A DNA stretch of 64,000 bases from Rhodothermales bacterium (GTDB lineage: Bacteria > Bacteroidota > Rhodothermia > Rhodothermales > Bin80): NCBI GenBank assembly GCA_963663495.1, contig OY760427.1, positions 412,040 through 476,039 of the forward strand, written 5' to 3'. Positions 1 to 17,734 of the stretch are shown in pieces. A program made the position numbers and the translations under genes. A model generated the notes under the pieces. That model was not told the origin of the DNA and searched no databases. It saw nothing but the letters and a program-made list of their open reading frames with translations. Within the stretch, counting starts at the first letter, position 1. Each line of letters opens with the position of its first letter.

Positions 1-1357
1 CCACTCCCGCGGTCTTATCCGCATAAATCACCCGTCCGGAGACGTACTGCGCGCTCTGCAAAGCGCTCTACAGCCCGTTTGCGGGTGATTCCATGCAGAA
101 AATCGGGAAGGCAGCGCTTTTGTGTACCAGGGGAAGAGTGTTGAAGTACCCTCGCTGCTGCAAAAGCCCCTCCCGTTCGGTATTCGTATCTCTCATGCCT
201 GCTGCTCGGACACCTCATCAGCAAACAATGCCGACCGCATCGGTAATAACTTCGACGCATGCTCCAGTCTGCGCATGCGTGATTCCATCTCCAACAGCAA
301 CAGCGCCAACTGCGCCCGTCGCTCCTGTGGCGGATACCAGTGACGAAGGCCGCGCAACTGCTTGACCAGCCTGTGCGAGGTATGCATCAAACAACGGGTG
401 CTCCTAAGACTCGGACTCAGCATCTCGTACAAGCCCGTACCATGCAGCGTCAGTGTCCGGTCCAGATCCTGCAGCAGCCATTGCGCCGCAGATCGGTTGC
501 ACCGTTGTAACTCGGCATGGATCCGCATCAGGGAACTGTGGGCCTCCTGTCGGTCCGGTAATTGATAAGCACGCGAGATGGCGCCCTTTACACGGCGTTG
601 ATCCTCATCGGCAAGATAGCTGACTACACGCTCGCGCTTGGCCATCTGGCAATGCTGCAGGCATACATGCATGCCCAAGCTCTGACCAAGAACTCGTGTT
701 AGCCCCGCCTGTCCAGATGTGATGCAAAGCAGGCCCCGATCCACACACAAACCGCGCTCGCACAACCCTTGTAGCAGCTGCCGCACCGCCCCCGTATCCT
801 GCACCGTGGACTCTGTAAATCCCAGCATATGCCGATACCCCTCTGCGGTAACGGCCATGCAAAGCAACAATGAACGACCGTACACCGATGTGGCATCCAT
901 CCACAGAGCCACGTAATCTTCCCCGCCTATGTGCCGACCCTCAAAGACCTCCAAGGCCTGGTTGCGCACCTCCCGCATATAGGCATTATCCTGACCACCA
1001 CCACCTTGTAACGAGGCCTCCTTCGCCTCCAGAACACGGGACGACTCCTCTGTTTGCGTCTTGCTGTCCGTAGGGGATGATGGAACCGCATTCACACCCG
1101 GGCTGGCCGACTCCTCTTGTTGCACATCCGACTCCAGACTGCATGTCAGGCGTTGTGCAAGCTCGGTGCATTGTCGCAGGAGAAAATATCGCAGCGACCG
1201 ACCGGATTGACCCGCGTCGCGAAGCATCTGATCAAGCTCCGAAAGATCATCTGAAGGCATCTTGGGAGAAAATAATTGGCTCGTGTAAAAGGCTCCGAAT
1301 ACTCCTAAACATTCGCGACCCTCGTTTTATAAGCCAACTAAATCTGGCACCATGCCC
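1..1357 (-). mobile_element. Window-truncated second copy of the large IS256-derived element (repeat-array edge, transposase-like gene, terminal IR at 1334-1357)
   Basis: 1-192 is the reverse complement of 7175-7370. 193-1260 is near-identical to 6107-7174. The 24-bp end CCAACTAAATCTGGCACCATGCCC (1334-1357) is the complement of the end at 6010-6033. Confidence 0.7.
193..1260 (-). CDS. IS256-family (Mutator-type) transposase-like protein with a degenerate DDE triad
   Basis: 355 aa, aligns with the bona fide IS256 transposase at 10707-12002 (YVALWMDATSV / LCITSGQAGL / STRCLMHTSHRL versus YVTLLIDGKYL / LCVVDGAKGL / TTNIIENVNGQL). The second Asp and the Glu are replaced. Confidence 0.8.
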   Translation of the reverse strand: MPSDDLSELDQMLRDAGQSGRSLRYFLLRQCTELAQRLTCSLESDVQQEESASPGVNAVPSSPTDSKTQTEESSRVLEAKEASLQGGGGQDNAYMREVRNQALEVFEGRHIGGEDYVALWMDATSVYGRSLLLCMAVTAEGYRHMLGFTESTVQDTGAVRQLLQGLCERGLCVDRGLLCITSGQAGLTRVLGQSLGMHVCLQHCQMAKRERVVSYLADEDQRRVKGAISRAYQLPDRQEAHSSLMRIHAELQRCNRSAAQWLLQDLDRTLTLHGTGLYEMLSPSLRSTRCLMHTSHRLVKQLRGLRHWYPPQERRAQLALLLLEMESRMRRLEHASKLLPMRSALFADEVSEQQA

Positions 1358-3220
1358 AGACCCCCAAACGCTCCACCTTGCACCCGCTCTTGAGCACGCG
1401 GAAGAAGTCTTCCACCCGCCACCGCTTGAGATACATGGCCAACACCCGCCGTGCATCCGCTACGCTCCCTACCTCCATGCTGGTCAATAGCATCCACTCC
1501 ACCGGCGGCGCATCCCCCGGAGGCTCCACCTCCAACACATGCACCCCGTACATCACCACCGGCTCCTCCTCGTTCTTCGGATCCGGCAACAAGAACCTCC
1601 CGTAGCGTACCTCCGCATTGACCATCCGGTAACTGCGACCCTTCCGTGCCTGCTTGCGCGCCTGCTTCTTGCGCGCCGTCACCCGATTTATCTCTATCGC
1701 TACATTCCCCGGAGCCTCACCACTGCGCATTACCGCAAACAGCTTGCGATCATCCAACAGCTTGCGATCATGCTTCGCTCGTATCAATACCTCCGCCTTA
1801 CCCTGTCTACGCTGCTCGGCAAACATCGCAAAGCTGTCCGCCTCCCGGTCCGCAACACAGATCACCTGCGTCTCGCCGGACAGCTCCGCCGCCGCCTCGC
1901 ATATATCCTTGAACCCGTCTATCCACTGCTGCGTCCGCGGAACATGCGGACCCTCCTCCGGATCCTTGAAGCTGCCACGCAACACCCCCAACGTCAATCC
2001 ATCCTCCGTCACCGCCAGCGTCGCATGCAACGGCAACCCCAGCGTCTTCGCCGTCGTCTGATTACTCCCTGTTACCTCCAAATCCGTACACGCCGGCCGC
2101 GTACTGTACCGCAACTTCGTCGTGTCCTGGATGCATAACACGGTCTCCTGACTACGCATACGCTCTATCGTACGCCCACGATGCGGCGCCAATATGTTCT
2201 CCGGCGTTACCGTTTTGTCCTTCTTGCTCTCCAATAACCGGTAATGCCCCTTCACCGCCGCGCGGTCCGCATCCGTATGCGCGGTAATGCTGTGGACTAT
2301 CACATCGGCCAACATGGACGTGCTCTTTACCAGTCGCACAGACAACCGCCTGTCTCCCAATGGCGCTCCGCCAAACTCCGTTTCGGCCCACTGCGCACTG
2401 TCAATCCCCTCGTGCGGATCCCTCACCGGACGCAACTCCTCCTCCGGTTCCCCCAGGGTTCCGCGCCATTCTTTGTCCAACTCGTATACATACAGCCCCT
2501 TGGGATCCTTTTCCTTTGCCTCCTTGTGCCGCTTTCCGCCTGCGGTATGGCCGATCAATACAAAATTGTTCACCTCAAAACACGTTCCTTCCCCTTGGGG
2601 ATCCACATACGTTTCGACAACCCAGGGACGGTAACGGTACCGTGCCTGAAAATCATCCGCCAACCGTCTCAACACCTTACCCAGTACATGGCTGGCCAAA
2701 TCCTGACACTGCCCCCGTATCAGAAAACGACTCAAACACACCACACGGTGCAAATGCGCCTTGCGCTGCTCATCACTCCACGCCATCCAGTGCTCCCTGG
2801 GCGCCAGGCACAACGCCGCCGCCGAAAATCCCACCGCTCCCAGGTAACCATGGGCACTGCCTATCAGATAGCGTACCTGCGCTCCCACAAATGTGGTCGT
2901 ACGCCTCGGATGCTCAAAGTGCAGCAACGTGTTCCACACCACACGCTGCTCGTCCGTCTCAACCAACTCAATCGTCAACCCCCGGACACCGTGTACCGTG
3001 TCCGGTAACGCTATCGGATCCGGTACCCGCTCCTCGCGCCTACGCGGTTCCGCCTTAGCCGCATTACAATTCTCGGGCTTGGGCAACACCATCCTCCCCC
3101 GGGCCTCCAACTTCGATAAAGCCTGCGCACAGTTGCTCACCTGCAGTTCGCCCCGTGCATCAACAAACCCGAACTCTTCGCAGACAGCGCGCGCTATCTG
3201 CGTGCGATACCGCCAACGAT
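1358..3220 (-). pseudogene. IS4-family transposase fragment (DUF4338 N-terminal domain + Tn5-like DDE domain), cut at both ends by other IS
   Basis: About 95% identical to 12650-14512 of the intact 769-aa gene. Its 3' side is cut by the IS256-like end at 1357 and its 5' side by the IS66 end at 3221. Confidence 0.85.
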
Positions 3221-3520
3221 GTATCCGTACGGTAAAGTACATGGTAAAGCGGGCTTAGCATTGGTCTGCGTAGTCCGCTTGTAGAGCTTAGTGCAAGGTG
3301 ATTATACGCCGGGTTTGGTGTGCCGATATGGGAATTTCGGAGTGGTGTGCAGCTTATCGTCCAGGCGCCTGAATGCAGGCAGCAATCAGCGTCTTTTGGG
3401 ACAAAAAACATGGGTTTTGGGGAGAAGAACCGGAACATTGTGGAGGACGCACATGCACATGAACTATGCGGTCCAAGGCATCTTTCTCCCCCTCTTCTCC
3501 TGCCGGTGAAGTCCTTTTTC

Positions 3521-3592
3521 AGAGGCTAAGAAACCAAGAGGCTAAGAAACCAAGAGGCTAAGAAACCAAGAGGCTAAGAAACCAAGAGGCTG
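3521..3592 (+). repeat. 16-bp tandem repeat AGAGGCTAAGAAACCA, 4 full units plus a partial one
   Basis: Read directly. IS66 copy 2 has a single unit at the homologous position (about 21240-21260). Confidence 0.9.
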
Positions 3593-3624
3593 AGAACAAG
3601 GATCTGCGAAAACAGGTCCGTCGC

Positions 3625-5190
3625 TTGGAGAAAAAAGCCGATCGTCTATCCAAGAACAACGCGGATATGGCTGCGACAATTGCCGATCAGGCTGCGAAGA
3701 TTAGCCATCTGGAAGATAGGTTGGAACAAGCGCATCGCCTACTCTCTGGCAAAAAGAGTGAGCGTTACACGCCGGCGGACAATGCGCAGCAAGGCCGGTT
3801 GTCTGGAGAGGAACCAGAAGCTGTTGAGCCCGAGGAGGAGGAGGACGAGTATGTCCTGGTAAAGCGCAAGCGGCGTGGGAAGAACAAGCCGGTGCGCGGG
3901 CCGCTTCCGGACCATCTGCCCAGAGAGGTGATCCGCCTTGAGCCGGAGGGCAGCACCGCGGGTATGAAGTACATCGGCGAGGAAGTAACGGAGTACCTGG
4001 AATATGTGCCGGGCTTCACGAGGGTAGTACGGATTGTGCGGCCGAAGTACGTTGTCTGCAAGGAGCCTCGCAAGGGGGTGGTCATAGCGCCGTTGCCGAA
4101 GCGTGTTATACCGAAGGGGAAGGCGGGTCCGGGGTTGTTGGCGTATTTGGCGGTAGCCAAATATGTGGATCATATGCCGCTATACCGGCTGCGGAAGAAG
4201 TTTCAGCGCCATGGCGTGAAGCTATCGGCTGCTACAATGGGGGATTGGATTGCGAAGGTAGCGACGTATCTGGGTCCGTTAGGAGATGCGTTGCGTAAGG
4301 AGGTGCTTCGTAGCGGGTATCTGCAGGTGGATGAGACAATGTTCCCGGTGCAAAAGCCGAAGAAGAAAGGGAAGAAGAAAGGGAAGGAGAAGGAGAAGGA
4401 AGGGAAGAAAAACGAAGGAAAGACGCATCGCGGCTATCTTTGGGTATACCTGGCACCGCGGGCGAAGGTGGTGATGATGGATTACAGCCCGAGCCGTGCG
4501 CGCGCTGGACCGTGGGAATTCTTGCGCGGATATAGAGGGGCGATGCAAACCGACGGGTATGTGGTGTACGATGCGTTTGGTACGCGGGGCGGGATAACGC
4601 TGTTTGGATGTATGGCGCATGCGCGTCGCAAGTTTTATGACTGCAGGAAAAAGGAGCCCAAGAAGGTGCGCCATGTAATGGAGGAAATCCGGCAGTTGTA
4701 TGCGATAGAGCGTGGGTTGCGTAAGGAGGGAGCTGGTCCGGCTCGGCGTGTAGAGGTACGACAGGAGGAGGCACGGCCGGTACTGGAGAAGTTGAAGCCA
4801 TGGCTTGAGGAGAGTCGTGAGCACCGGCCGAGTGCGGGATGGGATGAAGCCGTGGGGTACATGCTCAACAGGTGGGAGAAGCTGGCTTGTTACCTGGAAG
4901 ACGGTGAGGTTGAGATTGACAACAATCTGGTCGAGAACCAGATGCGAGCGATTGCGCTTGGTCGAAAAAACCATCTGTTTGCGGGATCGCATGCGGCAGC
5001 GCAGCGGTCCGCAGTACTGTACGCTCTTTTTGCCACATGCAAGTTGCAATCGACAAACCCGATTGAATGGCTTACCGACGTACTACGCCGTCTTCCGACA
5101 CATCCTGCCGACCGCATGGCTGAACTCTTGCCCCATCATTGGAAAGCTAGTCGGGACTTGCAGCAAGCTACCGTCAAGAAAGCGGCATAG
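3625..5190 (+). CDS. IS66-family transposase (TnpC-type), N-terminus disrupted relative to copy 2
   Basis: 521-aa ORF about 95% identical to the 544-aa ORF at 19688-21322. IS66 hallmarks present (MPLYRLRKKF, DETTFPV-type segment, DNNLVENQMR). The upstream ATG at about 3468 is put out of frame by stops inside the 16-bp repeat expansion. Confidence 0.8.
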   Translation: MEKKADRLSKNNADMAATIADQAAKISHLEDRLEQAHRLLSGKKSERYTPADNAQQGRLSGEEPEAVEPEEEEDEYVLVKRKRRGKNKPVRGPLPDHLPREVIRLEPEGSTAGMKYIGEEVTEYLEYVPGFTRVVRIVRPKYVVCKEPRKGVVIAPLPKRVIPKGKAGPGLLAYLAVAKYVDHMPLYRLRKKFQRHGVKLSAATMGDWIAKVATYLGPLGDALRKEVLRSGYLQVDETMFPVQKPKKKGKKKGKEKEKEGKKNEGKTHRGYLWVYLAPRAKVVMMDYSPSRARAGPWEFLRGYRGAMQTDGYVVYDAFGTRGGITLFGCMAHARRKFYDCRKKEPKKVRHVMEEIRQLYAIERGLRKEGAGPARRVEVRQEEARPVLEKLKPWLEESREHRPSAGWDEAVGYMLNRWEKLACYLEDGEVEIDNNLVENQMRAIALGRKNHLFAGSHAAAQRSAVLYALFATCKLQSTNPIEWLTDVLRRLPTHPADRMAELLPHHWKASRDLQQATVKKAA

Positions 5191-5332
5191 GAGCCCCTAA
5201 ACAGGCGCGCCCGGTCATCCGATAGATCCGTGTACGGGTCTGCGAATACGCTGTCAGGTACTTGACTCCTGCACACCCAACCGACGCTAGCCTATAAACC
5301 TTCGAACCGCGCTCTAACTTACTCTAATTGAG

Positions 5333-5503
5333 GGGAATTATATGGCTGAGTACCCATCTGCTGAGGTTTTCGAATTAATTGCAGTTTTTTCGCGAAAAGC
5401 GGGAACTGATTATGAAAAACTGGCGCAAGCCATCCTGACCGCACCACCACAGCGCAATAATAACGGGTGCCAAAACGCGTGGGTACTCAGCTATATAATT
5501 CCC
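5333..5503. mobile_element. 171-bp MITE with near-perfect 24-bp terminal inverted repeats, inserted into the right arm of IS66 copy 1
   Basis: GGGAATTATATGGCTGAGTACCCA ... TGGGTACTCAGCTATATAATTCCC. Flanked by the direct repeat TAATTGAG (5325-5332 and 5504-5511). The uninterrupted site with a single TAATTGAG is seen in IS66 copy 2 (about 19545-19560, complement). Confidence 0.85.
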
Positions 5504-5555
5504 TAATTGAGAGAGTAAATACCCTCGGTTATAATGTACTTCACCGGACGGATAC

Positions 5556-5742
5556 TTACCAGGAGCATGACGCCCACGCCCCTTGGTTTTCCCCACACAC
5601 TGAAACCCCGCAGCCCGAAAACACGTGCCGCGATGTTCGGGGCCCACAAAGGTCTCTATCACCCACGGCACATACCCGTAACGGTTCTCAAAATCCTCCG
5701 GAAAACAACGCAATACCTTCCCCAGTGTATGGCTGGCAAGGT
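5556..5742 (-). pseudogene. Internal fragment of a second, diverged DUF4338-type IS4 transposase gene
   Basis: Translates to LASHTLGKVLRCFPEDFENRYGYVPWVIETFVGPEHRGTCFRAAGFQCVGKTKGRGRH, homologous to residues of the 769-aa protein. It continues the reading frame of 14828-15430 across the IS4 insertion. Confidence 0.6.
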
Positions 5743-6106
5743 CTGCCCTGTACCCATAAATCATCCATTACGGTTCGATTGTTCGTCAGGTATGGTCAAA
5801 TATCGCTGGCATGGCTGTCGGAATATCTCGGGTATTTCGGCCTAACAGGTATGGTGTGTGACTTGAGGTGAATAATGCCATCCTCTCGTGCGGATACGCG
5901 ATCTCTTCCTGCGCCGCTTCCCTTGGCGCTGCATTGCCTACATCCACGAACCCTCGGCTGCAGTCTCCTGGCGATACTTCTGCCTCCAGTAATTCAACGG
6001 TCCGTACGAGGGCATGGTGCCAGATTTAGTTGGCTTATAAAACGAGGGTCGCGAATGTTTAGGAGTATTCGGAGCCTTTTACACGAGCCAATTATTTTCT
6101 TCCAAG

Positions 6107-7174
6107 ATGCCTTCAGATGATCTTTCGGAGCTTGATCAGATGCTTCGCGACGCGGGTCAATCCGGTCGGTCGCTGCGATATTTTCTCCTGCGACAATGCA
6201 CCGAGCTTGCACAACGCCTGACATGCAGTCTGGAGTCGGATGTGCAACAAGAGGAGTCGGCCAGCCCGGGTGTGAATGCGGTTCCATCATCCCCTACGGA
6301 CGGCAAGACGCAAACAGAGGAGTCGTCCCGTGTTCTGGAGGCGAAGGAGGCCTCGTTACAAGGTGGTGGTGGTCAGGATAATGCCTATATGCGGGAGGTG
6401 CGCAACCAGGCCTTGGAGGTCTTTGAGAGTCGGCACATAGGCGGGGAAGATTACGTGGCTCTGTGGATGGATGCCACATCGGTGTACGGTCGTTCATTGT
6501 TGCTTTGCATGGCCGTTACCGCAGAGGGGTATCGGCATATGCTGGGATTTACAGAGTCCACGGTGCAGGATACGGGGGCGGTGCGGCAGCTGCTACAAGG
6601 GTTGTGCGAGCGCGGTTTGTGTGTGGATCGGGGCCTGCTTTGCATCACATCTGGACAGGCGGGGCTAACACGAGTTCTTGGTCAGAGCTTGGGCATGCAT
6701 GTATGCCTGCAGCATTGCCAGATGGCCAAGCGCGAGCGTGTAGTCAGCTATCTTGCCGATGAGGATCAACGCCGTGTAAAGGGCGCCATCTCGCGTGCTT
6801 ATCAATTACCGGACCGACAGGAGGCCCACAGTTCCCTGATGCGGATCCATGCCGAGTTACAACGGTGCAACCGATCTGCGGCGCAATGGCTGCTGCAGGA
6901 TCTGGACCGAACACTGACGCTGCATGGTACGGGCTTGTACGAGATGCTGAGTCCGAGTCTTAGGAGCACCCGTTGTTTGATGCATACCTCGCACAGGCTG
7001 GTCAAGCAGTTGCGCGGCCTTCGTCACTGGTATCCGCCACAGGAGCGACGGGCGCAGTTGGCGCTGTTGCTGTTGGAGATGGAATCACGCATGCGCAGAC
7101 TGGAGCATGCGTCGAAGTTATTACCGATGCGGTCGGCATTGTTTGCTGATGAGGTGTCCGAGCAGCAGGCATGA
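6107..7174 (+). CDS. IS256-family transposase-like protein with a degenerate DDE triad (copy 2)
   Basis: 355 aa, 2 substitutions relative to 193-1260. D retained in WMDATS, S replaces the second D (CITSGQAGL), M replaces E when the ...RHW / ...RRW anchors are aligned. Confidence 0.8.
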   Translation: MPSDDLSELDQMLRDAGQSGRSLRYFLLRQCTELAQRLTCSLESDVQQEESASPGVNAVPSSPTDGKTQTEESSRVLEAKEASLQGGGGQDNAYMREVRNQALEVFESRHIGGEDYVALWMDATSVYGRSLLLCMAVTAEGYRHMLGFTESTVQDTGAVRQLLQGLCERGLCVDRGLLCITSGQAGLTRVLGQSLGMHVCLQHCQMAKRERVVSYLADEDQRRVKGAISRAYQLPDRQEAHSSLMRIHAELQRCNRSAAQWLLQDLDRTLTLHGTGLYEMLSPSLRSTRCLMHTSHRLVKQLRGLRHWYPPQERRAQLALLLLEMESRMRRLEHASKLLPMRSALFADEVSEQQA

Positions 7175-10100
7175 GAGATACGAATACCGAATGGGAGGGG
7201 CTTTTACAGCAGCGAGGGTACTTCAACACTCTTCCCCTAGTACACAAAAGCGCTGCCTTCCCGATTTTCTGCCTGGAATCACCCGCAAACGGGCTGTAGA
7301 GTACTTTTAGAGCGCGCAGTACGTCTCCGGACGGGTGATTATGCGGATAAGACCACGGGAGCGGCAACGGAGATCGCCTCCATTGGGCCAAAAAGGGGCT
7401 CGTGCAGGCTGTTTTTGTACAAACAGCTGGCTTTTCGCCGCACAGCGGCCCGTAGAACCTCAATAAACGCTCTCGCAGGCCCGGTTTCCTGCTGCGGCCG
7501 GACACACCCGGTGTGCAGATCAGGCTTCAAGTACACAAAAAACGCGGATATCCCCGTTTTTCTGCCCGGAATCACCCGTAAACGGCCTGCCGAGCGCCTT
7601 TCAGAGCGCGCAATACGTCTCTGGACGGGTAATTATGCGGATAAGACCACGGGAGCGGCAACGGAGAGCGCCTCCATTGGGCCAAAAAGGGGCTCGTGCA
7701 GGCTGTTTTTGGTCCAACAGCTGGCTTTTCGCCGCACAGCGGCCCGTGGAACCTCAATAAACGCTCTCGCAGGCCCGGTTTCCTGCTGCGGCCGGACACA
7801 CCCGGTATGCAGATCAGGCTTCAAGTGCACAACAAACACGGATATCCCCGTTCCGGAATCACCGGTAAACGGCCTGCCGAGCGCCTTTCAGAGCGCGCAA
7901 TACGTCTCTGGACGGGTAATTATGCGGATAAGACCACGGGAGCGGCAACGGAGAGCGCCTCCGTTGGGCCAAAAAGGGGCTCGTGCAGGCTGTTTTTGGT
8001 CCAACAGCTGGCTTTTCGCCGCACAGCGGCCCGTAGAACCTCAATAAACACTCTCGCAGGCCCGGTTTCCTGCTGCACCCGGTATGCAGATCAGGCTTCA
8101 AGTGCACAACAAACGCGGATATCCCCGTTTTTCTGCCCGGCATCACCTGCAAACGGCCTGCCGAGCGTCTTTCAGAGTGCGCAATACGTCTCTGGACGGG
8201 TAATCATGCGGATAAGACCACGGGAGCGGCAACGGAAAGCACCTCCATTGGGCGAAAAAGGCCTTGTGCAGGCCTGTAAGGATGCCAATTGCTGTGCACA
8301 GAGGGATGACCAAGGCCATCAAGGAAGCAGACTGCCCTGTGTTAAAGAGCTGCCGAGCTGGCTAACAGCACTATTGGAACGCGTACGATTGATCCATGCT
8401 TGCCAGAACAAGAATGTGGCCGTGCAATACTACTATGAGCACGATATCCGGGCGCACCGTGCCATGGTTGAAAAGATTGGCACGTTTTCGGAGCTAATCA
8501 CACGCATGGCAGGCTACAATGACTCCAGATCGTACGCTTTAAGCCGCTATAGCGATGCCAGCGCACGCAGAAGGGCTCAACGAAGCCGTTCGCGTGCAGA
8601 AACGCGCCCATATCTGCCACCAAAACGCCGACGACACCATACATCGCGCGTGTAGGTTATTGCGTGCACGGAAAACGGTGCATAAAGTATTCAATATTTG
8701 TAACCTGCACGGAATGGCATAACACCGCTGTTTTTGTACAAACAGCCGACTTGTTGCCGCACAGCAGCCCGTGGAGTCGCTATAACCTCTCTCAAAGGCC
8801 CGGTTTCCTGCTGCAGCAGGACCCACCCGGTATGCAGATCCGGCTTCAAGTGCACAATAAACGCGGATATCCCCGTTTTTCTGCCCGGAATCACTTGTAA
8901 ACGGCCTTGCAGAGCACTTTGCAGAGCGTGCAAAACGTCTCCAGACGGGTAACTATGCGGATAATACCGCGGGAGCGGCAACAGGAAGCGCCTCCATTGG
9001 GCCAAAAGGGCCTCGCACAAGGCCTGTAAGGATGCCAATTGCTGTGCACAGAGGGATGACCAAGGCCATCAAGGAAGCAGACTGCCCTGCGTTAAAGAGC
9101 TGCCGAGCTGGCTAACAGCACTATTGGAACGCGTACGATTGATCCATGCTTGCCAGAACAAGAATGTGGACGTGCAATACTACTATGAGCACGATATCCG
9201 GGCGCACCGTGCCACGGTTGAAAAGATTGGCACGTTTTCGGAGCTAATCACACGCATGGCAGGCTACAATGACTCCAGATCGTACGCTTTAAGCCGCTAT
9301 AGCGATGCCAGCGCACGCAAAAGGGCTCAACGAAGCCGTTCGCGTGCAGAAACGCGCCCATATCTGCCACCAAAACGCCGACGACACCATACATCACGCG
9401 TGTAGGTTATTGCGTGCACGGAAAACGGTGCATAAAGTATTCAATATTTGTAACCTGCACGGAATGGTATAACACCGCTGTTTTTGTACAAACAGCCGAC
9501 TTTTTGCCGCACAGCAGCCCGTGGAGCTGCTATAACCTCTCTCAAAGGCCCGGTTTCCTGCTGCGGCCGGACACACCCGGTATGCAAGATCAGGCTTCAA
9601 GTGCACAAAAAACACGGATATCCCCGTTCCGGAATCACCGGTAAACGGCCTGCCGAGCGCCTTTCAGAGCGCGCAATACGTCTCTGGATGGGTAATCATG
9701 CGGATAAGACCACGGGAGTGGCAACAGGAAGCGCCTCCATTGGGCCAAAAAGGGGCTCGTGCAGGCTGTTTTTGGTCCAACAGCTGGCTTTTCGCCGCAC
9801 AGCGGCCCGTAGAACCTCAATAAACACTCTCGCAGGCCCGGTTTCCTGCTGCACCCGGTATGCAAGATCAGGCTTCAAGTGCACAACAAACACGGATATC
9901 CCCGTTTTTCTGCCCGGCATCACCTGCAAACGGCCTGCCGAGCGTCTTTCAGAGTGCGCAATACGTCTCTGGACGGGTAATCATGCGGATAAGACCACGG
10001 GAGCGGCAACGGAAAGCACCTCCATTGGGCGAAAAAGGCCTTGTGCAGGCCTGTAAGGATGCCAATTGCTGTGCACAGAGGGATGACCAAGGCCATCAAG

Positions 10101-10600
10101 GAAGCAGACTGCCCTGTGTTAAAGAGCTGCCGAGCTGGCTAACAGCACTATTGGAACGCGTACGATTGATCCATGCTTGCCAGAACAAGAATGTGGCCGT
10201 GCAATACTACTATGAGCACGATATCCGGGCGCACCGTGCCATGGTTGAAAAGATTGGCACGTTTTCGGAGCTAATCACACGCATGGCAGGCTACAATGAC
10301 TCCAGATCGTACGCTTTAAGCCGCTATAGCGATGCCAGCGCACGCAAAAGGGCTCAACGAAGCCGTTCGCGTGCAGAAACGCGCCCATATCTGCCACCAA
10401 AACGCCGACGACACCATACATCGCGCGTGTAGGTTATTGCGTGCACGGAAAACGGTGCATAAAGTATTCAATATTTGTAACCTGCACGGAATGGCATAAC
10501 ACCGCTGTTTTTGTACAAACAGCCGACTTGTTGCCGCACAGCAGCCCGTGGAGCTGCTATAACCTCTCTCAAAGGCCCGGTTTCCTGCTGCAGGCATCTA
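7175..10600 (+). repeat. Higher-order tandem repeat array (about 285-294-bp units interleaved with three about 430-bp blocks)
   Basis: The motif GTCTC(C/T)GGA(C/T)GGGT starts at 7323, 7617, 7904, 8188, 8937, 9680 and 9965. The block GGCCTGTAAGGATGCC starts at 8271, 9021 and 10048, and each carries a 93-codon TTG-initiated ORF (8374-8655, 9124-9405, 10151-10432). Conserved hairpins: GCCGC-ACA-GCGGC, GCAGG-CCCGGTTT-CCTGC, GCTGTT-loop-AACAGC. Confidence 0.85.
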
Positions 10601-10706
10601 CAAAGTCATCCTCGTCGTTGGAAATCCTTACTATTGAACCATCTGGGGGCTCTGCATTATGCTACTTGGAGCCCTAATCATCCAACACCCTAACACACCC
10701 ATCGTT

Positions 10707-12002
10707 ATGCAAGCATGTGAGACAACAACCAAGCCCTCAACCAAGGCCAGGAAGCGAGTGAAGCACTTCCGGGATATAATTGATCAAGATCGGGAGACCA
10801 AGATGGCACTCTTGCGATGCAGCGGTAGCATTGAGGAGCTGTTGGCTAAATTGGTCATGGAAGAGGAGGTAGAGTCGCTCTGTGGCAAGCGCTACGCGAG
10901 AGACGATGTGCACGACGGACGTTACGAGAGATGGGGGACCAATCCGGGTTCAATCAGGATCATGGGGAAACGCCTGAAGATCCGGGTGCAGCGCGTACGG
11001 GATAAGAAAGAGGGCAAGGAGCGTCCTCTGGAGACCTATTGTGAGCTACGCAATGCATCGGTTGAAGAGGAGAACAATCTGACGGAAAACATTCTTCTTG
11101 GGATCAGCCAGCGGGATTATCACCGTGTGGTCAGCGCGTTTGCGGACAGTTATGGATTGAGCGCTTCCTCGGTCAGTCGCACTTTCAGGAAGAAGAGTGC
11201 GGAGGCCCTCAAGAAGTTCGAAGAACGCGATCTGTCTTCGGAAACCTATGTGACGCTGCTGATAGATGGCAAGTACTTGCAGGAGTGCCAGATCGTGCTG
11301 TGTATGGGCATTACGGCAGACGGAAAGAAGGAGATCTTGGGCATGGTGGAGACGACCACGGAGAATGCGGAGGCGATTGCAGGTTTGTTGGAAGGCCTGA
11401 TCAATCGCGGCCTGTGCTATGACCAGGGCCTGCTGTGCGTTGTGGATGGAGCGAAGGGGCTTTACAAGGCGGTAAAGGATGTCTTCGGCGACTACACGCA
11501 GGTGCAGCGTTGTACCTGGCACAAGCGGGAGAATGTGGTGAGCAAGCTCACGAAAAAGGAGGATGCGCCCAAGGTGCGTCGGAAGATGCAGGAGGCGTAT
11601 CGTGAAGACACGTACGACGACGCAAAAGCGGGGCTTGAGACCCTACGGGATGACTTGGAGGAACAAGGGGAGGAAGCGGCCGCACGTAGCCTGGAAGAGG
11701 GCATGGAAGAGACGCTGACACTGCACAGGCTGGGTGTGGCGGATACGGTCGGATGCAGTCTGCTAACCACCAACATCATTGAGAATGTCAACGGCCAGCT
11801 GGCTAATCGAACGCGGCGGATCAGACGTTGGGTAAACTCAGATCAACGTCACCGATGGGTAGCAATGGCTATGCTGGAAACCGAACCCCGATTATGTAAG
11901 CTTGGCTGCGCAAAACACCTTCCGAAGCTCCAAAAAGCCCTGCTAAAATGTGTGCCGAAACCGTATCTTGGGCCCACTCCTAAGCCGGTCTTGAAAAAAT
12001 AG
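10707..12002 (+). CDS. IS256-family transposase, apparently intact
   Basis: Mutator-type motifs LLIDGKYL, CVVDGAKGL, TTNIIENVNGQLANRTRR. ATG at 10707 is preferred over the non-ATG start at 10659 in the ORF track. Confidence 0.9.
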   Translation: MQACETTTKPSTKARKRVKHFRDIIDQDRETKMALLRCSGSIEELLAKLVMEEEVESLCGKRYARDDVHDGRYERWGTNPGSIRIMGKRLKIRVQRVRDKKEGKERPLETYCELRNASVEEENNLTENILLGISQRDYHRVVSAFADSYGLSASSVSRTFRKKSAEALKKFEERDLSSETYVTLLIDGKYLQECQIVLCMGITADGKKEILGMVETTTENAEAIAGLLEGLINRGLCYDQGLLCVVDGAKGLYKAVKDVFGDYTQVQRCTWHKRENVVSKLTKKEDAPKVRRKMQEAYREDTYDDAKAGLETLRDDLEEQGEEAAARSLEEGMEETLTLHRLGVADTVGCSLLTTNIIENVNGQLANRTRRIRRWVNSDQRHRWVAMAMLETEPRLCKLGCAKHLPKLQKALLKCVPKPYLGPTPKPVLKK

Positions 12003-12279
12003 ACCAACTAAATCTGGCACCATGCCCGTACGAAGATGCCCTGCTCTGCGCAAGACGCCGCTGCGGACCGGGTCCTTTCGTTATACTGCTCTACCAGCGG
12101 AAACATCTCTTCCGCCGTACGTCTGGGCTGTACCAGGCGGGCGGTCCGGGGTCTGGGTTCTCACGTCTACGGGTAAGCTCTACAGAACCCGTCACCTAAT
12201 CAAGATGCAAGTTCACCGCACGCTCACGCAGGTGTAGCCACTGGGGCATAGGCCCACATCAGGCAGGTTGATATGCCAT

Positions 12280-14589
12280 TTATATGAACCCAGATGAATT
12301 CCCGTGCGAACATGCACTCAATTGTTCGTCTCTTACCTCGTATCCCAATGTCATTAGGTGTAACCTCTCTAGGCCACGCCACATGATCTGGTAACCCACC
12401 GGTCCATCACGAGTGCGGTTCTGATAACCGCCGAGCACCGCTACGATCAGGATAGCAGCTCCCAAAGTACTGGGCTTCGGCAGCTTTACCCGTGCTGCAT
12501 ATCCTTCCAAGAATCGCAGCTCCATCTCCGTGAAAAAGACATCCGCGTCCAGCTCCGGCACCTCCCGACCCAATTGCACCAAGGTCATGACGCGCCAGGA
12601 TATCACACAATACATCGTTATTGCTCGCTGCAGACGCAACGAGGTACGCAGACCCAAACGCTCTACCTTGCACCCACTCTTGAGCACGCGGAAGAAGTCT
12701 TCCACCCGCCACCGCTTGAGATACATTGCCAACACCCGCCGTGCATCCGCTACGCTCCCTACCTCCATGCTGGTCAATAGCATCCACTCCACCGGCAGCG
12801 CATCCCCCGGAGGCTCCACCTCCAACACATGCACCCCGTACATCACCACCGGCTCCTCCTCGTTCTTCGGATCCGGCAACAAGAACATCCCGTAGCGTAC
12901 CTCCGCATTGACCATCCGGTAACTGCGACCCTTCCGTGCCTGCTTGCGCGCCTGCTTCTTGCGCGCCGTCACCCGCTGTATCTCTATCTCCACATTCCCC
13001 GGAGCCTTACCACTGCGCATTACCGCAAACAGCTTGCGATCATCCAACAGCTTGCGATCATGCTTCGCTCGTATCAATACCTCCGCCTTACCCTGTCTGC
13101 GCTGCTCGGCAAACATAGCAAAGCTGTCCGCCTCCCGGTCCGCAACACAGATCACCTGCGTCTCGCCGGACAGCTCCTCCGCCGCCTCGCATATATCCTT
13201 GAACCCGTCTATCCACTGCTGCGTCCGTGGAGCATGCGGACCCTCCTCCGGATCCTTGAAGCTGCCACGCAACACCCCCAACGTCAATCCATCCTCCGTC
13301 ACCACCAGCGTCGCATGCAACGGCAACCCCAGCGTCTTCGCCGTCGTCTGATTACTCCCTATTACCTCCAAATCCGTACACGCCGGCCGCGTACTGTACC
13401 GCAACTTCGTCGTGTCCTGGATGCATAACACGGTCTCCTGACTACGCATGCGCTCTATCGTACGCCCACGATGCGGCGCCAATATGTTCTCCGGCGTTAC
13501 CGTTTTGTCCTTCTTGCTCTCCAATAACCGGTAATGCCCCTTCACCGCCGCGCGGTCCGCATCCGTATGCGCGGTAATGCTGTGGCCTATCACATCGGCC
13601 AACATGGACGTACTCTTTACCAGTCGCACAGACAACCGCCTGTCTCCCAATGGCGCTCCGCCAAACTCCGTTTCGGCCCACTGCGCACTGTCTATCCCCT
13701 CGTGCGGATCCCTCACCGGACGCAACTCCTCCTCCGGTTCCCCCAAGGTCCCGCGCCATTCTTTGTCCAACTCGTATACATACAGCCCCTTGGGATCCTC
13801 TTCCTTTGCCTCCTTGTGCCGCTTTCCGCCTGCGGTATGGCCGATCAATACAAAATTGTTCACCTCAAAACACGCTCCTTCCCCTTGGGGATCTACATAC
13901 GTTTCGACAACCCAGGGACGGTAACAGTACCGTGCCTGAAAATCATCCGCCAACCGTCTCAATACGTTACCCAGTACATGGCTGGCCAAATCCTGACACT
14001 GCCCCCGTATCAGAAAACGACTCAAACACACCACACGGTGCAAATGCGCCTTGCGCTGCTCATCACTCCACGCCATCCAGTGCTCTCTGGGCGCCAGGCA
14101 CAACGCCGCCGCCGAAAATCCCACCGCTCCCAGGTAACCATGGGCACTGCCTATCAGATAGCGTACCTGCGCTCCCACAAATGTGGTCGTACGCCTCGGA
14201 TGCTCAAAGTGCAGCAACGTGTTCCACACCATACGCTGCTCGTCCGTCTCAACCAACTCAATCGTCAACCCCCGGACACCGTGTACCGTGTCCGGTAACG
14301 CTATCGGATCCGGTACCCGCTCCTCGCGCCTACGCGGTTCCGCCTTAGCCGCATTACAATTCTCGGGCTTGGGCAACACAATCCTCCCCCGGGCCTCCAA
14401 CTTCGATAAAGCCTGCGCACAGTTGCTCACCTGCGGTTCGCCCCGTGCATCAACAAACCCGAACTCTTCACAGACAGCGCGCGCTATCTGCGTGCGAAAC
14501 CGCCAACGATCGTCGGCAAGAACCCTGTCCAAACGCTCTCCATTGCAGGGAGCGGTGAGCGTTCGTAAGACCTGACTTCGTTGAAACAT
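12280..14589 (-). CDS. IS4-family transposase with N-terminal DUF4338-like domain, full length (769 aa)
   Basis: N-terminal FEHPRRTTTFVGAQVRYLIGS...WVVETYVDP (DUF4338-type). C-terminal IS4 signature YLKRWRVEDFFRVLK (Y-2-R-3-E-6-K). Confidence 0.85.
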   Translation of the reverse strand: MFQRSQVLRTLTAPCNGERLDRVLADDRWRFRTQIARAVCEEFGFVDARGEPQVSNCAQALSKLEARGRIVLPKPENCNAAKAEPRRREERVPDPIALPDTVHGVRGLTIELVETDEQRMVWNTLLHFEHPRRTTTFVGAQVRYLIGSAHGYLGAVGFSAAALCLAPREHWMAWSDEQRKAHLHRVVCLSRFLIRGQCQDLASHVLGNVLRRLADDFQARYCYRPWVVETYVDPQGEGACFEVNNFVLIGHTAGGKRHKEAKEEDPKGLYVYELDKEWRGTLGEPEEELRPVRDPHEGIDSAQWAETEFGGAPLGDRRLSVRLVKSTSMLADVIGHSITAHTDADRAAVKGHYRLLESKKDKTVTPENILAPHRGRTIERMRSQETVLCIQDTTKLRYSTRPACTDLEVIGSNQTTAKTLGLPLHATLVVTEDGLTLGVLRGSFKDPEEGPHAPRTQQWIDGFKDICEAAEELSGETQVICVADREADSFAMFAEQRRQGKAEVLIRAKHDRKLLDDRKLFAVMRSGKAPGNVEIEIQRVTARKKQARKQARKGRSYRMVNAEVRYGMFLLPDPKNEEEPVVMYGVHVLEVEPPGDALPVEWMLLTSMEVGSVADARRVLAMYLKRWRVEDFFRVLKSGCKVERLGLRTSLRLQRAITMYCVISWRVMTLVQLGREVPELDADVFFTEMELRFLEGYAARVKLPKPSTLGAAILIVAVLGGYQNRTRDGPVGYQIMWRGLERLHLMTLGYEVRDEQLSACSHGNSSGFI

Positions 14590-14827
14590 GCCGCAACATA
14601 AAGAACAAGTAGCAAAATGTCAAATACATGAAGTGGTAGGATGGCAGTGGAAGCGGCGCAGGAAGAGATCGCGTATCCGCACGAGAGGACGGCATTATTC
14701 ACCTCAAGTCACACACCATACCTGTCAGGTCGAAATACCCGAGATATTCCGACAGCCATGCCAGCGAGAGTTGACCAGAACTGACGAACAATCGAACCGT
14801 GATGGATGATTTATGGGGGAAGGGCAG

Positions 14828-15430
14828 GGCAAGGTTCTTGATCCGCACCATGGAGCGAATCAGGAACCGATTCAAACCCACGACATGGTCCCGGTAGTCC
14901 TCACGCTGCTCGTCCGACCACGCCATCCATCTGTCGCGCGCCTTCAGATACAGCCCCGCAGCCGCAAAGCCTATCGCTCCGATGTAGCCATGCTCGCTCC
15001 CGACAAGATAGCGCAACTGCCGTCCGACAAACCGTGGCGCACACAACGGATGCTCGGCCTCCACAAGCGTATTCCAGATCGCACGCTGCCCGGCATCTTC
15101 TACCAATTCCAACTCCAGGCCGTGCACATCCTTGAGCAACGTCGGCACTCCAACAGGCGCAGGTACCGGTTCGTCCAACAAACGAGGCACTGTGCTTCGG
15201 ACCACGCGCTTCGGTGCAGGCAAGGACAGCGCACCCTCGGCTTCGAGTGTCTTGAGCGCCTGCAAACAACTGCTGTGCTGCACACGCCCTAAGGCATCAT
15301 AAAAGCCAAACGCTTCACTCACACGGCGACTTATCGCTGTGCGACCATCGTCAGGATGCTGCTCCATGACCTCTGTCAACTCACATGGAGCGGCACGCAG
15401 TGTCTTCAGAATCTGATGTTGAACCACCAT
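14828..15430 (-). pseudogene. N-terminal half of the diverged DUF4338-type transposase gene that was the target of the IS4 insertion
   Basis: Translates to MVVQHQILKTL...RFLIRSMVRIKNLA. The frame continues at 5742 downward (SHTLGKV...) once the IS4 element and one copy of GGCAAGGT are removed. Confidence 0.65.
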
Positions 15431-15489
15431 GCCGCCAATCTAAGCGGCATGAATTGCAAAGTCAAGTAGGGGTACCGGTTGAACGGTAG

Positions 15490-15729
15490 TGCTAGGTGAT
15501 CGGTGACCCTCTCAGCAGTCCTCAAATCAGCGGTGGAGGTGTATCGCCAGACCAACTGGAAGAGAACATGAGTGAATCCATGTTCCCGCAGGTCACCACC
15601 GTAAGCGAGATTCGTGTCTGCGGCGAGAAGTTGGAGTGCAATCTCGGCCATGGCCTCCTTGAAGTGTCCTTCGCTTAGACCCAAAGCCACCATGTCCGGG
15701 CTGTCTGATGTTGAAATTGCAACAGTCAT
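15490..15729 (-). pseudogene. About 80-codon N-terminal fragment of a possible SLOG/STALD-like protein, truncated by the adjacent IS
   Basis: MTVAISTSDSPDMVALGLSEGHFKEAMAEIALQLLAADTNLAYGGDLREHGFT recalls SLOG-type N-termini. This rests on memory of the family only. The boundary is approximate. Confidence 0.25.
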
Positions 15730-16011
15730 TGGTACAGATAGGTCTTACGTAGTCTTCCGCGCAAGCCATTGAGTTAGTGTTTGCCAGAAAAAGGTAGGAG
15801 GGCTGAAAAACGGCGAAACAAGGCCGTTTGATACTCGTTTTGTCAAGCTGTAAGCGTCACGTGTACAGATGGATATGAGCCATACGGTATTTGCACATTG
15901 CAGATTATTCAGCCAGCGTGTCTCTAACGAATGTTTGGCCAAATCCTTCTGTTTCGGGCGTTTTCATCGATATAAGGCCCCTTGTGGCCGATTATTCATA
16001 CGATTAATACC

Positions 16012-17436
16012 ATGCGGATTGTAGAGGATACACAGTTTAAGCTCGGGCAGGTCCCCATTGAAGAGATGACCTTCCACCCCAAAGACCGGGACGATATACC
16101 GGCAGTGCTAAAAGGACTGCAGCACCTGTATTGCGACCCAACGGCTCGGCAGAAGATCTTTGAGATCCTGGAGAAGCAGTTGCTTCCGAATATTGATTTG
16201 CAGCGTGGTCGTCCGGGGATGGCACTTTGGCGCGTCTTTGTCTTGGGGGTATTGAAGCAGGCCCTCAACTGCGACTTTGATCGTTTGAGGAGCCTGGCCG
16301 CCAATCATTTGGAGGTGCGCCAGATGCTGGGGCATACGAATTTCTGGGACGAGCCTGTCTATCAGCTGCAGACCGTTATTGATAACGTGAGCCTGCTAAC
16401 AGCGGACATCCTGAAGCAGATCAACGATGCGGTGGTGGCTTGCGGTCACCGATTGGTAGAACAGGAGCCAGAGGAGCCGCTTCTTTGCCGGGTTGATTCG
16501 GCGGTGGCCAAAGCGAATGTGGAGTGGCCTACGGATGTTCGTTTGTTGTGGGAATCGATGCGGTGCCTGATTCGGGAGTTGCATTGCGCATGTGAGGCGC
16601 ACAGCCTTGCGGGCTGGCGCAAGGCTGTGTACTGGAGTCGTACCTTGAAGAAGGCCTTCAACCGGGTGCGTACGCACCGTCAGTGGCGTGATGAGTCGAA
16701 GGTGAGAAAGTATGTGAAGATGTGTCGTGTTCTGATTGAGCGTGCGGAGAGCAGTGTCAGCGTGTTGAAGGAGAAAGACGCGGATCTTGAGGAGGTGTTG
16801 CGGTACTTGGCAGATGCACAAAGGCAGATAGATCAAGTAGATAGGCGTCTATTGAAGGGGGAGGTGATTCCGCATGATGAGAAGGTATTTTCGATACATG
16901 AGCCGCATACTCGTTGGATCACCAAGGGGAAGGCGGGGGTGATTGCGGAGTTGGGTCTGCCGGTATGCGTGCTGGAGGATCAGCATCAGTTGATATTGTG
17001 GCATCAGATACTGCACGAAGGGGTGGATTCGGATATGATTGTGGGGTTTATGAAGGAAGCGAAGGATCGGTATCCGGCGATCACATCGTGCAGCATGGAT
17101 AAGGGGTACTCATCGGTAAAGAACCGTAAGGCGCTGGAGCCGGTGTTGGACACGGTGATCATGCCGAAGAGGGGTAAGTTGAGCAAAGCGGACAAGGAGA
17201 GGGAATCCGATCCGAAGTTTGTGGAGGGTCGTCGTCAGCATCCGGCAGTGGAGTCGGCGATCAACAATTTGAATCATCGGGGCCTGGGTTTGATACGGAC
17301 CCGTGGCAAGGAAGGCTTTGTTCGAACGGTGGCGCTGGTAGTGGTAGCGGCAAATGTGCACCGTATCGGACAGATAGTGAAGCGGAGCGAGGAGCGACGA
17401 AGGCGGTGCGAGCAGGCCCGCAAGCGCGCGGCGTAG
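16012..17436 (+). CDS. DDE transposase of the IS4/IS5 superfamily (ISNCY-like)
   Basis: Start MRIVEDTQFKLGQVPIEEMTFHPKDRDDIPAVLKGLQHLY and C-terminal VESAINNLNHRGLGLIRTRG are typical of this transposase type. ATG at 16012. Confidence 0.7.
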   Translation: MRIVEDTQFKLGQVPIEEMTFHPKDRDDIPAVLKGLQHLYCDPTARQKIFEILEKQLLPNIDLQRGRPGMALWRVFVLGVLKQALNCDFDRLRSLAANHLEVRQMLGHTNFWDEPVYQLQTVIDNVSLLTADILKQINDAVVACGHRLVEQEPEEPLLCRVDSAVAKANVEWPTDVRLLWESMRCLIRELHCACEAHSLAGWRKAVYWSRTLKKAFNRVRTHRQWRDESKVRKYVKMCRVLIERAESSVSVLKEKDADLEEVLRYLADAQRQIDQVDRRLLKGEVIPHDEKVFSIHEPHTRWITKGKAGVIAELGLPVCVLEDQHQLILWHQILHEGVDSDMIVGFMKEAKDRYPAITSCSMDKGYSSVKNRKALEPVLDTVIMPKRGKLSKADKERESDPKFVEGRRQHPAVESAINNLNHRGLGLIRTRGKEGFVRTVALVVVAANVHRIGQIVKRSEERRRRCEQARKRAA

Positions 17437-17734
17437 GTACTCGCGCGAGCGTCTTCAGCACAGAATCAAGGTAGCCTGCAAGGGCGAGAGGCCAACGTAT
17501 GTTCATGCCTCGCTGATGGACGACAAAAACACGTCTGATCAACGTCAAAACCCTAGGATTGCCGGCGTGAGCGGACAAAGTCGGCACCGTTACCGTCGAA
17601 AAATCCTTGCTGACTTGTCATTCCGATCCCCAATTCGAATTCCAGCCCCCCACTCAGCCAAGAGTCGCTCGCAAGACCATACTTTTCTGGCAAACACGAG
17701 TTATGGTTTGGAATTGCAGGCCGCCCCTAATCGC

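Follow-up and report, generated by a model that had tools for sequence, protein, structure and literature searches.

What is a 3.4-kb array of about 290-bp tandem units doing in the genome of a Rhodothermales bacterium, and to what kind of sequence does it belong? The original prediction had been unable to assign the array to any known class, and had linked it to the adjacent IS256-like transposase paralogue. We analyzed the surrounding DNA (the whole stretch of 64,000 nucleotides, hereafter the window) and found that the array and both transposase-type genes beside it are enclosed by one IS256-family insertion sequence with inverted repeats at its ends, located at positions 6011-12026 and 6,016 bp (about 6 kb) in length. 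The array can therefore be placed as part of a known family, and the link to the paralogue was borne out: within the 64-kb window, the unit motifs were found only in this element.

The left terminal inverted repeat of the element, GGCATGGTGCCAGATTTAGTTGG (6011-6033, plus strand), is 23 bp long and matches the right one (12004-12026, minus strand) with 0 mismatches. The identical 23-mer ends also bound copies of the element in locus L001 and at window position 1356. Target-site duplications of 8-9 bp are expected for the IS256 family. Here, the element is flanked by the 8-bp copies CGTACGAG on the left (6003-6010) and CGTACGAA on the right (12027-12034), both without strand assignment, which match at 7 of 8 positions, and the L001 copy has a perfect 8-bp duplication, with CTCTATTG on both sides. 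At least two copies of the element are present in the window. The second is truncated (1-1356, minus strand) and comprises the left repeat, ORF1 and the start of the array; it sits within a DruA-Tn5-type transposase gene and continues past the window edge. ORF1 is about 99% identical among the element copies.

The gene order in the element is ORF1, array and ORF2. ORF2 (10659-12002, plus strand) is 447 aa as the longest ORF, with the likely start at ATG 10707, and represents an intact IS256/Mutator-family DDE transposase. It matched the PF00872 profile nearly in full (E=9.5e-36, profile positions 30-369 of 379) as well as the solved structure of the ISCth4 transposase (PDB 6XG8), and its DDE-aligned motifs are LIDG, VVDG and IIEN. 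A unique leader precedes it (10592-10706, plus strand), and the region around ATG 10707 is similar to the ORF2 starts in L015 and L018. ORF1 (6107-7174, plus strand, 355 aa) is a conserved, catalytically dead paralogue that corresponds to the transposase core only of PF00872. It is 33% identical to residues 176-429 of ORF2, has lost two catalytic residues (D2 to S and E to H), and in the alignment lacks any equivalent of the ORF2 N-terminus. The ORF1 family consists of homologues of about 345 aa that are 42-66% identical. Because ORF1 is kept despite its dead catalytic site, it must have some non-catalytic role. Tn5 encodes Inh, a transposase derivative without the N-terminal DNA-binding part. 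ORF1 resembles Inh as a transposase derivative that lacks an N-terminal part, an analogy that concerns ORF1 only; Inh is made from an alternative start in the same gene, whereas ORF1 is a separate paralogue with the sequence divergence and catalytic losses given above.

The element shares with IS256 and ISCth4 a Mutator/IS256-type DDE transposase (PF00872), terminal inverted repeats, an 8-bp target duplication and the presence of several copies per genome. It belongs to the IS256 family as an atypical, unusually large member: ISCth4 is 1,503 bp with one ORF (PMC7780238) and classical IS256 members have a single ORF in about 1.3-1.5 kb, whereas the element described here has 6,016 bp, two ORFs and a 3.4-kb array that accounts for 57% of its length. 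From the family membership, a copy-out/paste-in mechanism is expected for it (PMC7780238). The layout of two genes separated by an array is odd and apparently unreported for a transposon.

The array extends from 7175 to 10591 and consists of seven units of about 290 bp, the first of them partial, and three longer blocks. All seven unit markers and all three blocks predicted originally were located at their given places, and the block length needed correction, from about 430 bp to 456 bp. The motifs of the A and C segments each occur seven times, where chance predicts about zero, and the rest of the 64-kb window has none; the period determined by TRF was 294 with 91% matches. The natural repeat unit is A-B-C; the array starts with a partial B'C (about 7230-7407) and ends with a lone A'. 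All segments are given here on the plus strand. The 3' flank of ORF1 together with this first, most diverged partial unit (7175-7407), which is without a T2 hairpin (see below), is followed by unit 1 (A-B-C, 294 bp, 7408-7701), unit 2 (A-B-C, 287 bp, 7702-7988; 99.7% identical to unit l1 of L014) and unit 3 (A-B-C', 282 bp, 7989-8270; 100% identical to unit l6 of L014 and 99.3% to unit 6 of the window). Unit 3 adjoins the first 456-bp block (8271-8726), which holds a 93-codon ORF at 8374-8655. Unit 4 (A'-B-C', 294 bp, 8727-9020), the second block (9021-9476), unit 5 (A'-B-C, 288 bp, 9477-9764), unit 6 (A-B-C', 283 bp, 9765-10047), the third block (10048-10503) and the terminal A' segment (10504-10591) complete the array. 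Without exception, each block is flanked by a C' variant on one side and an A' variant on the other. The block copies are 98.7-99.8% identical. A MITE or other small mobile insertion would have terminal inverted repeats, a target duplication and copies elsewhere; the block shows an imperfect subterminal inverted repeat only (ATGCCAATTGCTGTGCA / TGCACGGAATGGCAT), with 2-4 bp of microhomology at the junctions, and no copy was seen outside the array. The block is most likely a non-coding passenger sequence.

The array was compared with other kinds of repeat. CRISPR arrays are composed of short repeats (about 23-55 nt) and unique spacers, usually with cas genes nearby, whereas the units here are about 290 bp and run head to tail without unique spacers, in agreement with the original prediction. 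Up to about 6 kb away from the array in both directions, the ORFs scanned with Pfam were transposase or DruA-domain proteins. An integron cassette array would have attC sites, cassette ORFs and an intI integrase close by; the scanned neighbours here are transposases, and units that are nearly identical do not resemble cassettes. REP units are about 20-40 nt long and scattered in intergenic regions genome-wide. The array is palindromic, non-coding and repeated as REP/BIME sequences are, but its unit is about 290 bp and is confined to the element within the 64-kb window, and the unit motifs were absent from 12 related Rhodothermales loci; the REP/BIME-type repeat raised earlier as a refuting case is thus not what the window and these loci show.

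The spacer between ORF1 and ORF2 is about 60-130 bp in the more distant relatives L003, L005 and L007, roughly 350-500 bp in L016, about 0.9-1 kb in the closest relatives L015 and L018 (ORF1 65-66% identical) and 3.5 kb here. In L015 and L018 it contains a module, present twice, that is homologous to the core of the unit, segments B-C (62-70% identity, E down to 1e-19), and the L015 repeat also includes a copy of the last 36 codons of ORF1. The short gap in the distant relatives and the gap of about 1 kb with two modules in the closest ones indicate that an older spacer module was amplified in tandem, specifically in this lineage, to give the array. The order of plain units and blocks reads A A A I I A I in the window and A A I I A A I in L014, and the L001 array has two units and no block. 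Unit identities pair across the element copies (99.7%, 100%, 98.6% and 98.3%), and unit l2 is a chimera. The varied order and number of units among the element copies match the behaviour of a minisatellite, with unequal recombination or slippage as the source of change. We propose that the array would have originated by tandem duplication of an ancestral segment that comprised the 3' end of ORF1 and the spacer, and would then have grown and been reshuffled via unequal recombination or replication slippage, possibly in copy-out/paste-in transposition; long palindromes may have helped in both. The unit count is probably close to neutral. Since the unit types differ by up to 20%, and the element copies are about 99% identical in ORF1, the array is far older than the last transposition burst, and some selected role fits its long persistence better than pure neutrality.

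By a sequence profile, we also detected three weak, single module-like copies without a nearby transposase remnant, in L015, L019 and L002, and given these stray copies the module may also exist on its own. Neither the unit nor the block occurred in plasmid and phage collections, and a degenerate pattern of the module gave one chance match in JGI metagenomes and zero in viral contigs. The 288-bp repeat in L010 is unrelated, being a coding repeat within a 3,163-aa ORF.

The best-conserved structural feature of the array is a long palindrome composed of an A-tract, a GC hairpin and a T-tract, which resembles a bidirectional terminator. This palindrome, T1, is exemplified by TGGGCCAAAAA-GC hairpin-TTTTTGGTCCA at 7678-7716 (no strand assigned); it follows the motif GGGCCAAAAA...TTTTTGGYCC and has a folding energy of -18 to -27 kcal/mol. 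Further full copies are located at 7384-7422, 7965-8003 and 9741-9779, and forms with the A-tract only at 8250-8275, 8999-9025 and 10027-10052. The inner stem of T1 has a changed sequence in the L015/L018 lineage, with pairing retained. A second palindrome, T2, is exemplified by AAAAAA-CGCGGATATCCCCG-TTTTT at 7537-7561 (no strand assigned) and recurs at 7834-7852, 8111-8132, 8859-8880, 9607-9628 and 9888-9909. In the units of the window it folds weakly (-4 to -7 kcal/mol), and the first unit lacks it; in L015 and L018 its position is occupied by another stem sequence, e.g., GCGCGG-ATA-CCGCGC. The small hairpins had been described earlier as the same in all units, which proved incorrect for the A' variant: it breaks both GCCGC-ACA-GCGGC (reads GCAGC) and GCAGG...CCTGC (reads AAAGG). 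The minus-strand hairpin and T-run described at every block junction were indeed present.

Judged by sequence, both T1 and T2 have the form of an intrinsic terminator, a GC-rich stem-loop followed by a U-tract. T1 shares with bidirectional rho-independent terminators the GC-rich hairpin between an A-tract and a T-tract, with pairing kept across lineages, but it differs from ordinary ones in that a mobile element carries it 4-7 times over a stretch of 3.4 kb, and it is a putative terminator. As every unit has two palindromes of this kind, a strong one and a weaker one, the most likely activity predicted for the array is transcription termination in both directions; in the units adjoining a block, T1 is without the T-tract and would stop minus-strand transcripts only. 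Termination would uncouple ORF2 from the transcription of ORF1 and from outside read-through, and the array is probably a non-coding spacer that insulates ORF2 transcription from ORF1. On balance, we lean toward reading the array as a tandemly amplified non-coding ORF1-ORF2 spacer, with putative terminators that uncouple ORF2 and with a near-neutral number of units.

The amplified spacer might also be a selected regulatory array of terminator-bounded modules in a two-gene IS256 subfamily, each module possibly making a small RNA or binding ORF1, that sets the ratio of ORF1 (a putative inhibitor or partner) to transposase, with copy number tuning a heritable transposition rate; we consider this stronger version doubtful. 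More doubtful is the reading that every unit is the gene of a small RNA, such as a regulator of ORF1 or ORF2 of the antisense or 3'-UTR-derived type, whose dose is multiplied by the array. The candidate transcript would run on the minus strand from the promoter-like TTGCCG-18-CATAAT to the T2 hairpin and its T-run and would be about 85-90 nt long. Minus-strand promoter-like sites at 7367, 7661, 7948 and 9724 and minus-strand terminator-like sites at T2 agree with it, as do the conserved core of about 130 nt between the T2 and T1 hairpins and the module identity of about 65% between elements with 65-66% identity in the ORF1 protein. However, the promoter scan barely exceeded chance (5 vs 2.9 +/- 1.8 expected), conservation of the -35 box does not extend to L015 or L018, and the middle hairpin shows all four haplotypes, with an A.C mismatch in most units. 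The structured RNA suggested in the original prediction was not supported by folding. Compared to shuffled sequence, the minus strand of the unit has a slight folding advantage (z=-2.0; plus strand, -1.0), a point in favour of the small RNA, and the two strands of the 456-bp block gave -0.8 and +0.9; none of these values is significant. On 11 module copies, RNAalifold returned a weak -18.7 kcal/mol and a covariation term of just -1.1 kcal/mol; the copies come from two independent lineages, which gives covariation little power either way. There was no Rfam match at the gathering score, nor at E<=5 on 7100-10750, and ARAGORN found no tRNA or tmRNA. Nothing demonstrates a new RNA or defence system. 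It is improbable, too, that the ORF1 protein or the transposase has a binding site in one unit after another, with the array acting as a decoy, enhancer or assembly platform that tunes transposition. The array is directly downstream of ORF1 in all copies seen, and ORF1 is conserved though catalytically dead; against this, no 9-mer is common to the array and either element end (120 bp each), BLAST of the element ends matched ends only, ORF1 lacks the N-terminal region that ISCth4-type transposase uses for DNA binding (PMC7780238), and more distant family members have ORF1 without such a spacer.

A slightly lower probability goes to tandem promoter monomers that drive ORF2, with copy number setting the transposase level. 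The array is directly upstream of ORF2 and its copy number differs among element copies, and there is a parallel in the L1Md 5'-UTR monomers of mouse, which are likewise tandem units of about 200-300 bp in a mobile element, upstream of coding sequence, whose copy number and subtype differ between copies (PMC6454616). The parallel is an analogy only, since L1Md is a eukaryotic retrotransposon with monomers that are proven promoters, whereas here the units are terminator-like, their hairpins face ORF2, and no promoter was detected: the scan found no plus-strand sigma-70-like promoter in the units or leader, a weak test because it excludes the Rhodothermales promoter type. Marginally less probable again is that the 456-bp block encodes a real small basic passenger protein (93 or 149 aa), with the units as its flanking regulatory DNA. 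All six copies that were read have the frame open, as do at least 17 protein variants of the source genome, a count biased by the fact that broken copies would be missing from protein databases. Unit ORFs showed no codon-usage signal and the 93-codon frame was mildly gene-like, with the best score of the three frames (0.07 vs -0.17 and -0.31), but far under host genes (0.23). The best AlphaFold model was a long helix with pLDDT 85, but a single helix with pTM 0.39 and four other models at 55-70 give no evidence of a fold. The coding doubt voiced earlier was well placed: the six copies differ by 6 non-synonymous and 2 synonymous changes, and no relative outside the source genome was found among 5.8 billion and 1.84 billion proteins. 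In addition, TTG is the sole start codon unless the ORF starts within the repeat, the 190-aa and 127-aa translations matched only the source genome's own ORFs, Pfam and PHROGs gave no match for the array ORFs, and the module had no synonymous excess in any of the six frames. We found no purifying selection on the 93-codon ORF. An assembly artefact, with a collapsed or expanded repeat, is hardly credible: misassembly is common in tandem repeats, but the array stands on three independent contigs, on each with a coherent unit order that differs from the others, the unit types have diverged (80-100% identity), and the flanking sequence is unique.

Bacterial insertion sequences are usually viewed as minimal, with a transposase gene between two short repeats. 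The element described here, in which we favour an amplified spacer with putative terminators, is four times the usual IS size and more than half variable non-coding repeats, yet it clearly went on transposing. The arrays would be a convenient strain-typing marker for these sponge-type Rhodothermales genomes. Control of transposition by the array or ORF1 would mean that a very widespread IS family can regulate itself in a new way. A neutral array would measure how much non-coding ballast a copy-out/paste-in element tolerates, and would indicate that bacterial transposons, like eukaryotic ones, can grow internal minisatellites.

Window 6011-12026 is a single 6,016-bp IS256-family element, and the tandem array (7175-10591) is the spacer between its two ORFs. 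The downstream ORF2 (10659-12002, 447 aa) matched Pfam Transposase_mut and, when aligned with the solved structure of the ISCth4 transposase, shows intact DDE motifs; the upstream ORF1 (6107-7174, 355 aa), a transposase paralogue, matched the same family weakly and over its core only. The element is bounded at 6011-6033 and 12004-12026 by the inverted repeat GGCATGGTGCCAGATTTAGTTGG, 23 bp long and without mismatch, next to which stand CGTACGAG (left) and CGTACGAA (right), and a copy on the metagenome contig L001 has identical terminal repeats with a perfect 8-bp duplication (CTCTATTG). We also found a second copy (left repeat, ORF1 and the array start) at window 1-1356 on the minus strand, which interrupts a DruA-Tn5-type transposase gene. 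The ORF types, inverted repeats, flanking duplications, shared ends in L001 and second copy together define the element. Its transposase, inverted repeats and target duplication are those of the IS256 family, whereas its size and two ORFs differ from the classical compact, single-ORF form (PMC7780238); the array-bearing element is thus a variant of this family. In a non-exhaustive search of the literature on tandem repeats in IS256 elements, we found no such array and no two-gene IS256, and the nearest analogy was the monomer array in the mouse L1 5' UTR (PMC6454616).

The surroundings (window 1-17500) form a dense insertion sequence nest with IS66, two IS256-type copies, several DruA-Tn5 copies and a further DDE_Tnp_1 gene at 15982-17436. 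In the DruA-Tn5 copies and fragments (12280-14589, 1338-3242, 14699-15430 and 5375-5764, all minus strand), a DruA (Druantia, PF14236) domain is fused to a Tn5/IS4-type transposase with DNA-binding, DDE and dimerisation domains. Two other tandem repeats were seen in the window, one of 16 bp x 4.8 just upstream of the IS66 transposase gene (3521-3596) and one of 87 bp x 3.0 with 97% matches (24031-24288).

The tandem repeats described in the original prediction are real and exceed chance by a wide margin. Each of the two best-conserved unit motifs has seven plus-strand occurrences between 7294 and 10591, against about zero expected in the window scan, and none in the rest of the 64-kb window. 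TRF gave a period of 294 at 91% matches, and the repeat finder recovered the spacings of about 285-294 bp as well as those of 750 and 1027 bp. We re-registered the array into units of segments A, B and C with interposed blocks: a partial first unit (B'C, about 7230-7407), unit 1 (A-B-C, 7408-7701), unit 2 (A-B-C, 7702-7988), unit 3 (A-B-C', 7989-8270), block copy 1 (8271-8726), unit 4 (A'-B-C', 8727-9020), block copy 2 (9021-9476), unit 5 (A'-B-C, 9477-9764), unit 6 (A-B-C', 9765-10047), block copy 3 (10048-10503) and a terminal A' (10504-10591). The block measures 456 bp instead of the predicted 430 bp or so; its copies are 98.7-99.8% identical to one another and are always flanked by the C' variant on one side and the A' variant on the other. 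The small hairpins thought to be kept in every unit do exist, but the A' variant disrupts two of them.

The units are non-coding; ORFs running through them showed no codon-usage signal, and no synonymous excess was found in any frame of the B-C module copies of loci L015 and L018. Each block holds a 93-codon ORF, already regarded as doubtful, and our results bear out that doubt. Its six DNA copies have 8 variable sites, 6 non-synonymous and 2 synonymous, and neither it nor longer translations had a relative outside the source genome (5.8 billion clustered proteins; 1.84 billion representatives) or a Pfam or PHROG match. Its codon-usage score (0.07) was above the other two frames and well below host genes (0.23), ORF1 (0.24) and ORF2 (0.33), and the single long helix modelled by AlphaFold (pTM 0.39) is uninformative. 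We conclude that the block ORF is very unlikely to be a real gene.

The conserved structure had also been read as a repeated structured RNA, which our results do not favor: the proposed Rfam search gave no match, folding z-scores of the unit were -1.0 and -2.0 and those of the block -0.8 and +0.9, and RNAalifold on 11 module copies gave -18.7 kcal/mol with a weak covariation term of -1.1. Conserved structure is local and consists of two hairpins. The end of segment C carries T1, a long palindrome (GGGCCAAAAA-GC hairpin-TTTTTGGYCC) folding at -18 to -27 kcal/mol, whose inner stems vary by lineage with pairing kept; T2, in segment B, is weaker, with A- and T-runs on its flanks and lineage-specific stem sequences. 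Both look like bidirectional intrinsic terminators. The minus-strand terminator-like hairpin noted earlier at the block junction corresponds to T1, which there retains its A-tract but has lost its T-tract. No 9-mer is common to the array and the terminal 120 bp of either element end; the array holds no copies of the transposase end sites.

Across the loci compared, the ORF1-ORF2 gap length tracks element relatedness. The two-gene IS256 subfamily in Rhodothermales comprises the window and loci L003-L008 and L015-L018. In L003, L004, L005, L007 and L008 (ORF1 46-53% identical to that of the window) there are no repeats, the ORF2 match begins at most about 230 bp from the ORF1 match in all five, and the gap is ~60-130 bp in L003, L005 and L007. 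The gap is roughly 350-500 bp in L016 and L017 (62%), about 0.9-1 kb in L015 and L018 (65-66%), and 3.5 kb in the window. In L015 and L018 it contains two module copies with a period of 440-520 bp, 62-70% identical to segments B-C, and the unit and block had no match in any other related locus searched. We conclude that the array arose by lineage-specific amplification of an older spacer module. The L015 repeat also duplicates the final 36 codons of ORF1, and the end of segment A (GGTTTCCTGCTGCGG; last copy ...CTGCTGCAGGCAT) still seems to resemble the ORF1 terminus (TTGTTTGCTGATGAGG...GCAGCAGGCATGA); the first duplication would have spanned the ORF1 3' end and the spacer. Weak single B-C module copies (nhmmer E about 1e-10 to 1e-4) were seen in intergenic DNA away from any transposase remnant, at L015 14779-14902, L019 4275-4374(-) and 4547-4628(+), and L002 8620-8721(-) and 8894-8975(+); such copies may be left over from dead elements, or the module may exist independently. 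In L014, a diverged tandem duplication (379-1722, minus-strand context; periods about 400 and 825 bp) follows another two-ORF IS256-like element (1737-3899) and contains a copy of that element's ORF2 3' end; such duplication close to gene ends may recur among these elements. L015 also carries, between IS66 and IS4 remnants, a non-coding tandem repeat (3584-4280; period 288 bp, 2.4 copies, 81% matches) with no sequence similarity to the array unit.

The arrays differ among three element copies. With A for a plain unit and I for a block, the order is A A A I I A I in the window and A A I I A A I in L014, and L001 has two plain units and a deletion reaching into ORF2. This deletion (L001 11620-11630) fuses an A segment to about codon 25 of ORF2 and removes the transposase start, and the copy is probably dead. 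Unit types pair between copies at 98-100% (window unit w2 with L014 unit l1, 99.7%; w3 with l6, 100%), unlike types inside one array differ by up to 20%, and L014 includes a unit that is chimeric between two types. Such a pattern points to a minisatellite, older than the recent transposition burst, that changes by unequal recombination or slippage. Many arrays must exist in the source genome, since at least 7 variants of ORF1 and at least 17 of ORFs reading through the block are present there.

The element thus combines a dead-paralogue gene, an amplified spacer whose units carry terminator-like palindromes, and a transposase gene, and its array changes by recombination. The module would terminate ORF1 transcripts and read-through from outside, thereby uncoupling ORF2 expression from ORF1; in short-spacer relatives, the two genes would be near enough for co-transcription. 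Unit number is probably nearly neutral, and the palindromes and replicative copy-out (PMC7780238) may promote slippage. The persistence of diverged units and the stray single modules outside recognisable elements leave room for a selected function.

ORF1 is 33% identical to ORF2 residues 176-429, has an unrelated N-terminus of ~95 aa, and carries S at the second catalytic D and H at the E. It occurs in the window at 6107-7174 and 193-1260(-), and belongs to a conserved family of ~345 aa (42-66% identity, 34 clusters), in which the second D and the E are absent from 26/26 full-length members aligned. The host genomes of this family are Rhodothermales MAGs, presumably sponge-associated to judge from their names. 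In ORF1, which lies directly upstream of an active-type transposase gene, the DNA-binding N-terminus and two of the three DDE residues have been lost. It could serve the element as a regulator or partner of its own making, and may be of more interest than the array.
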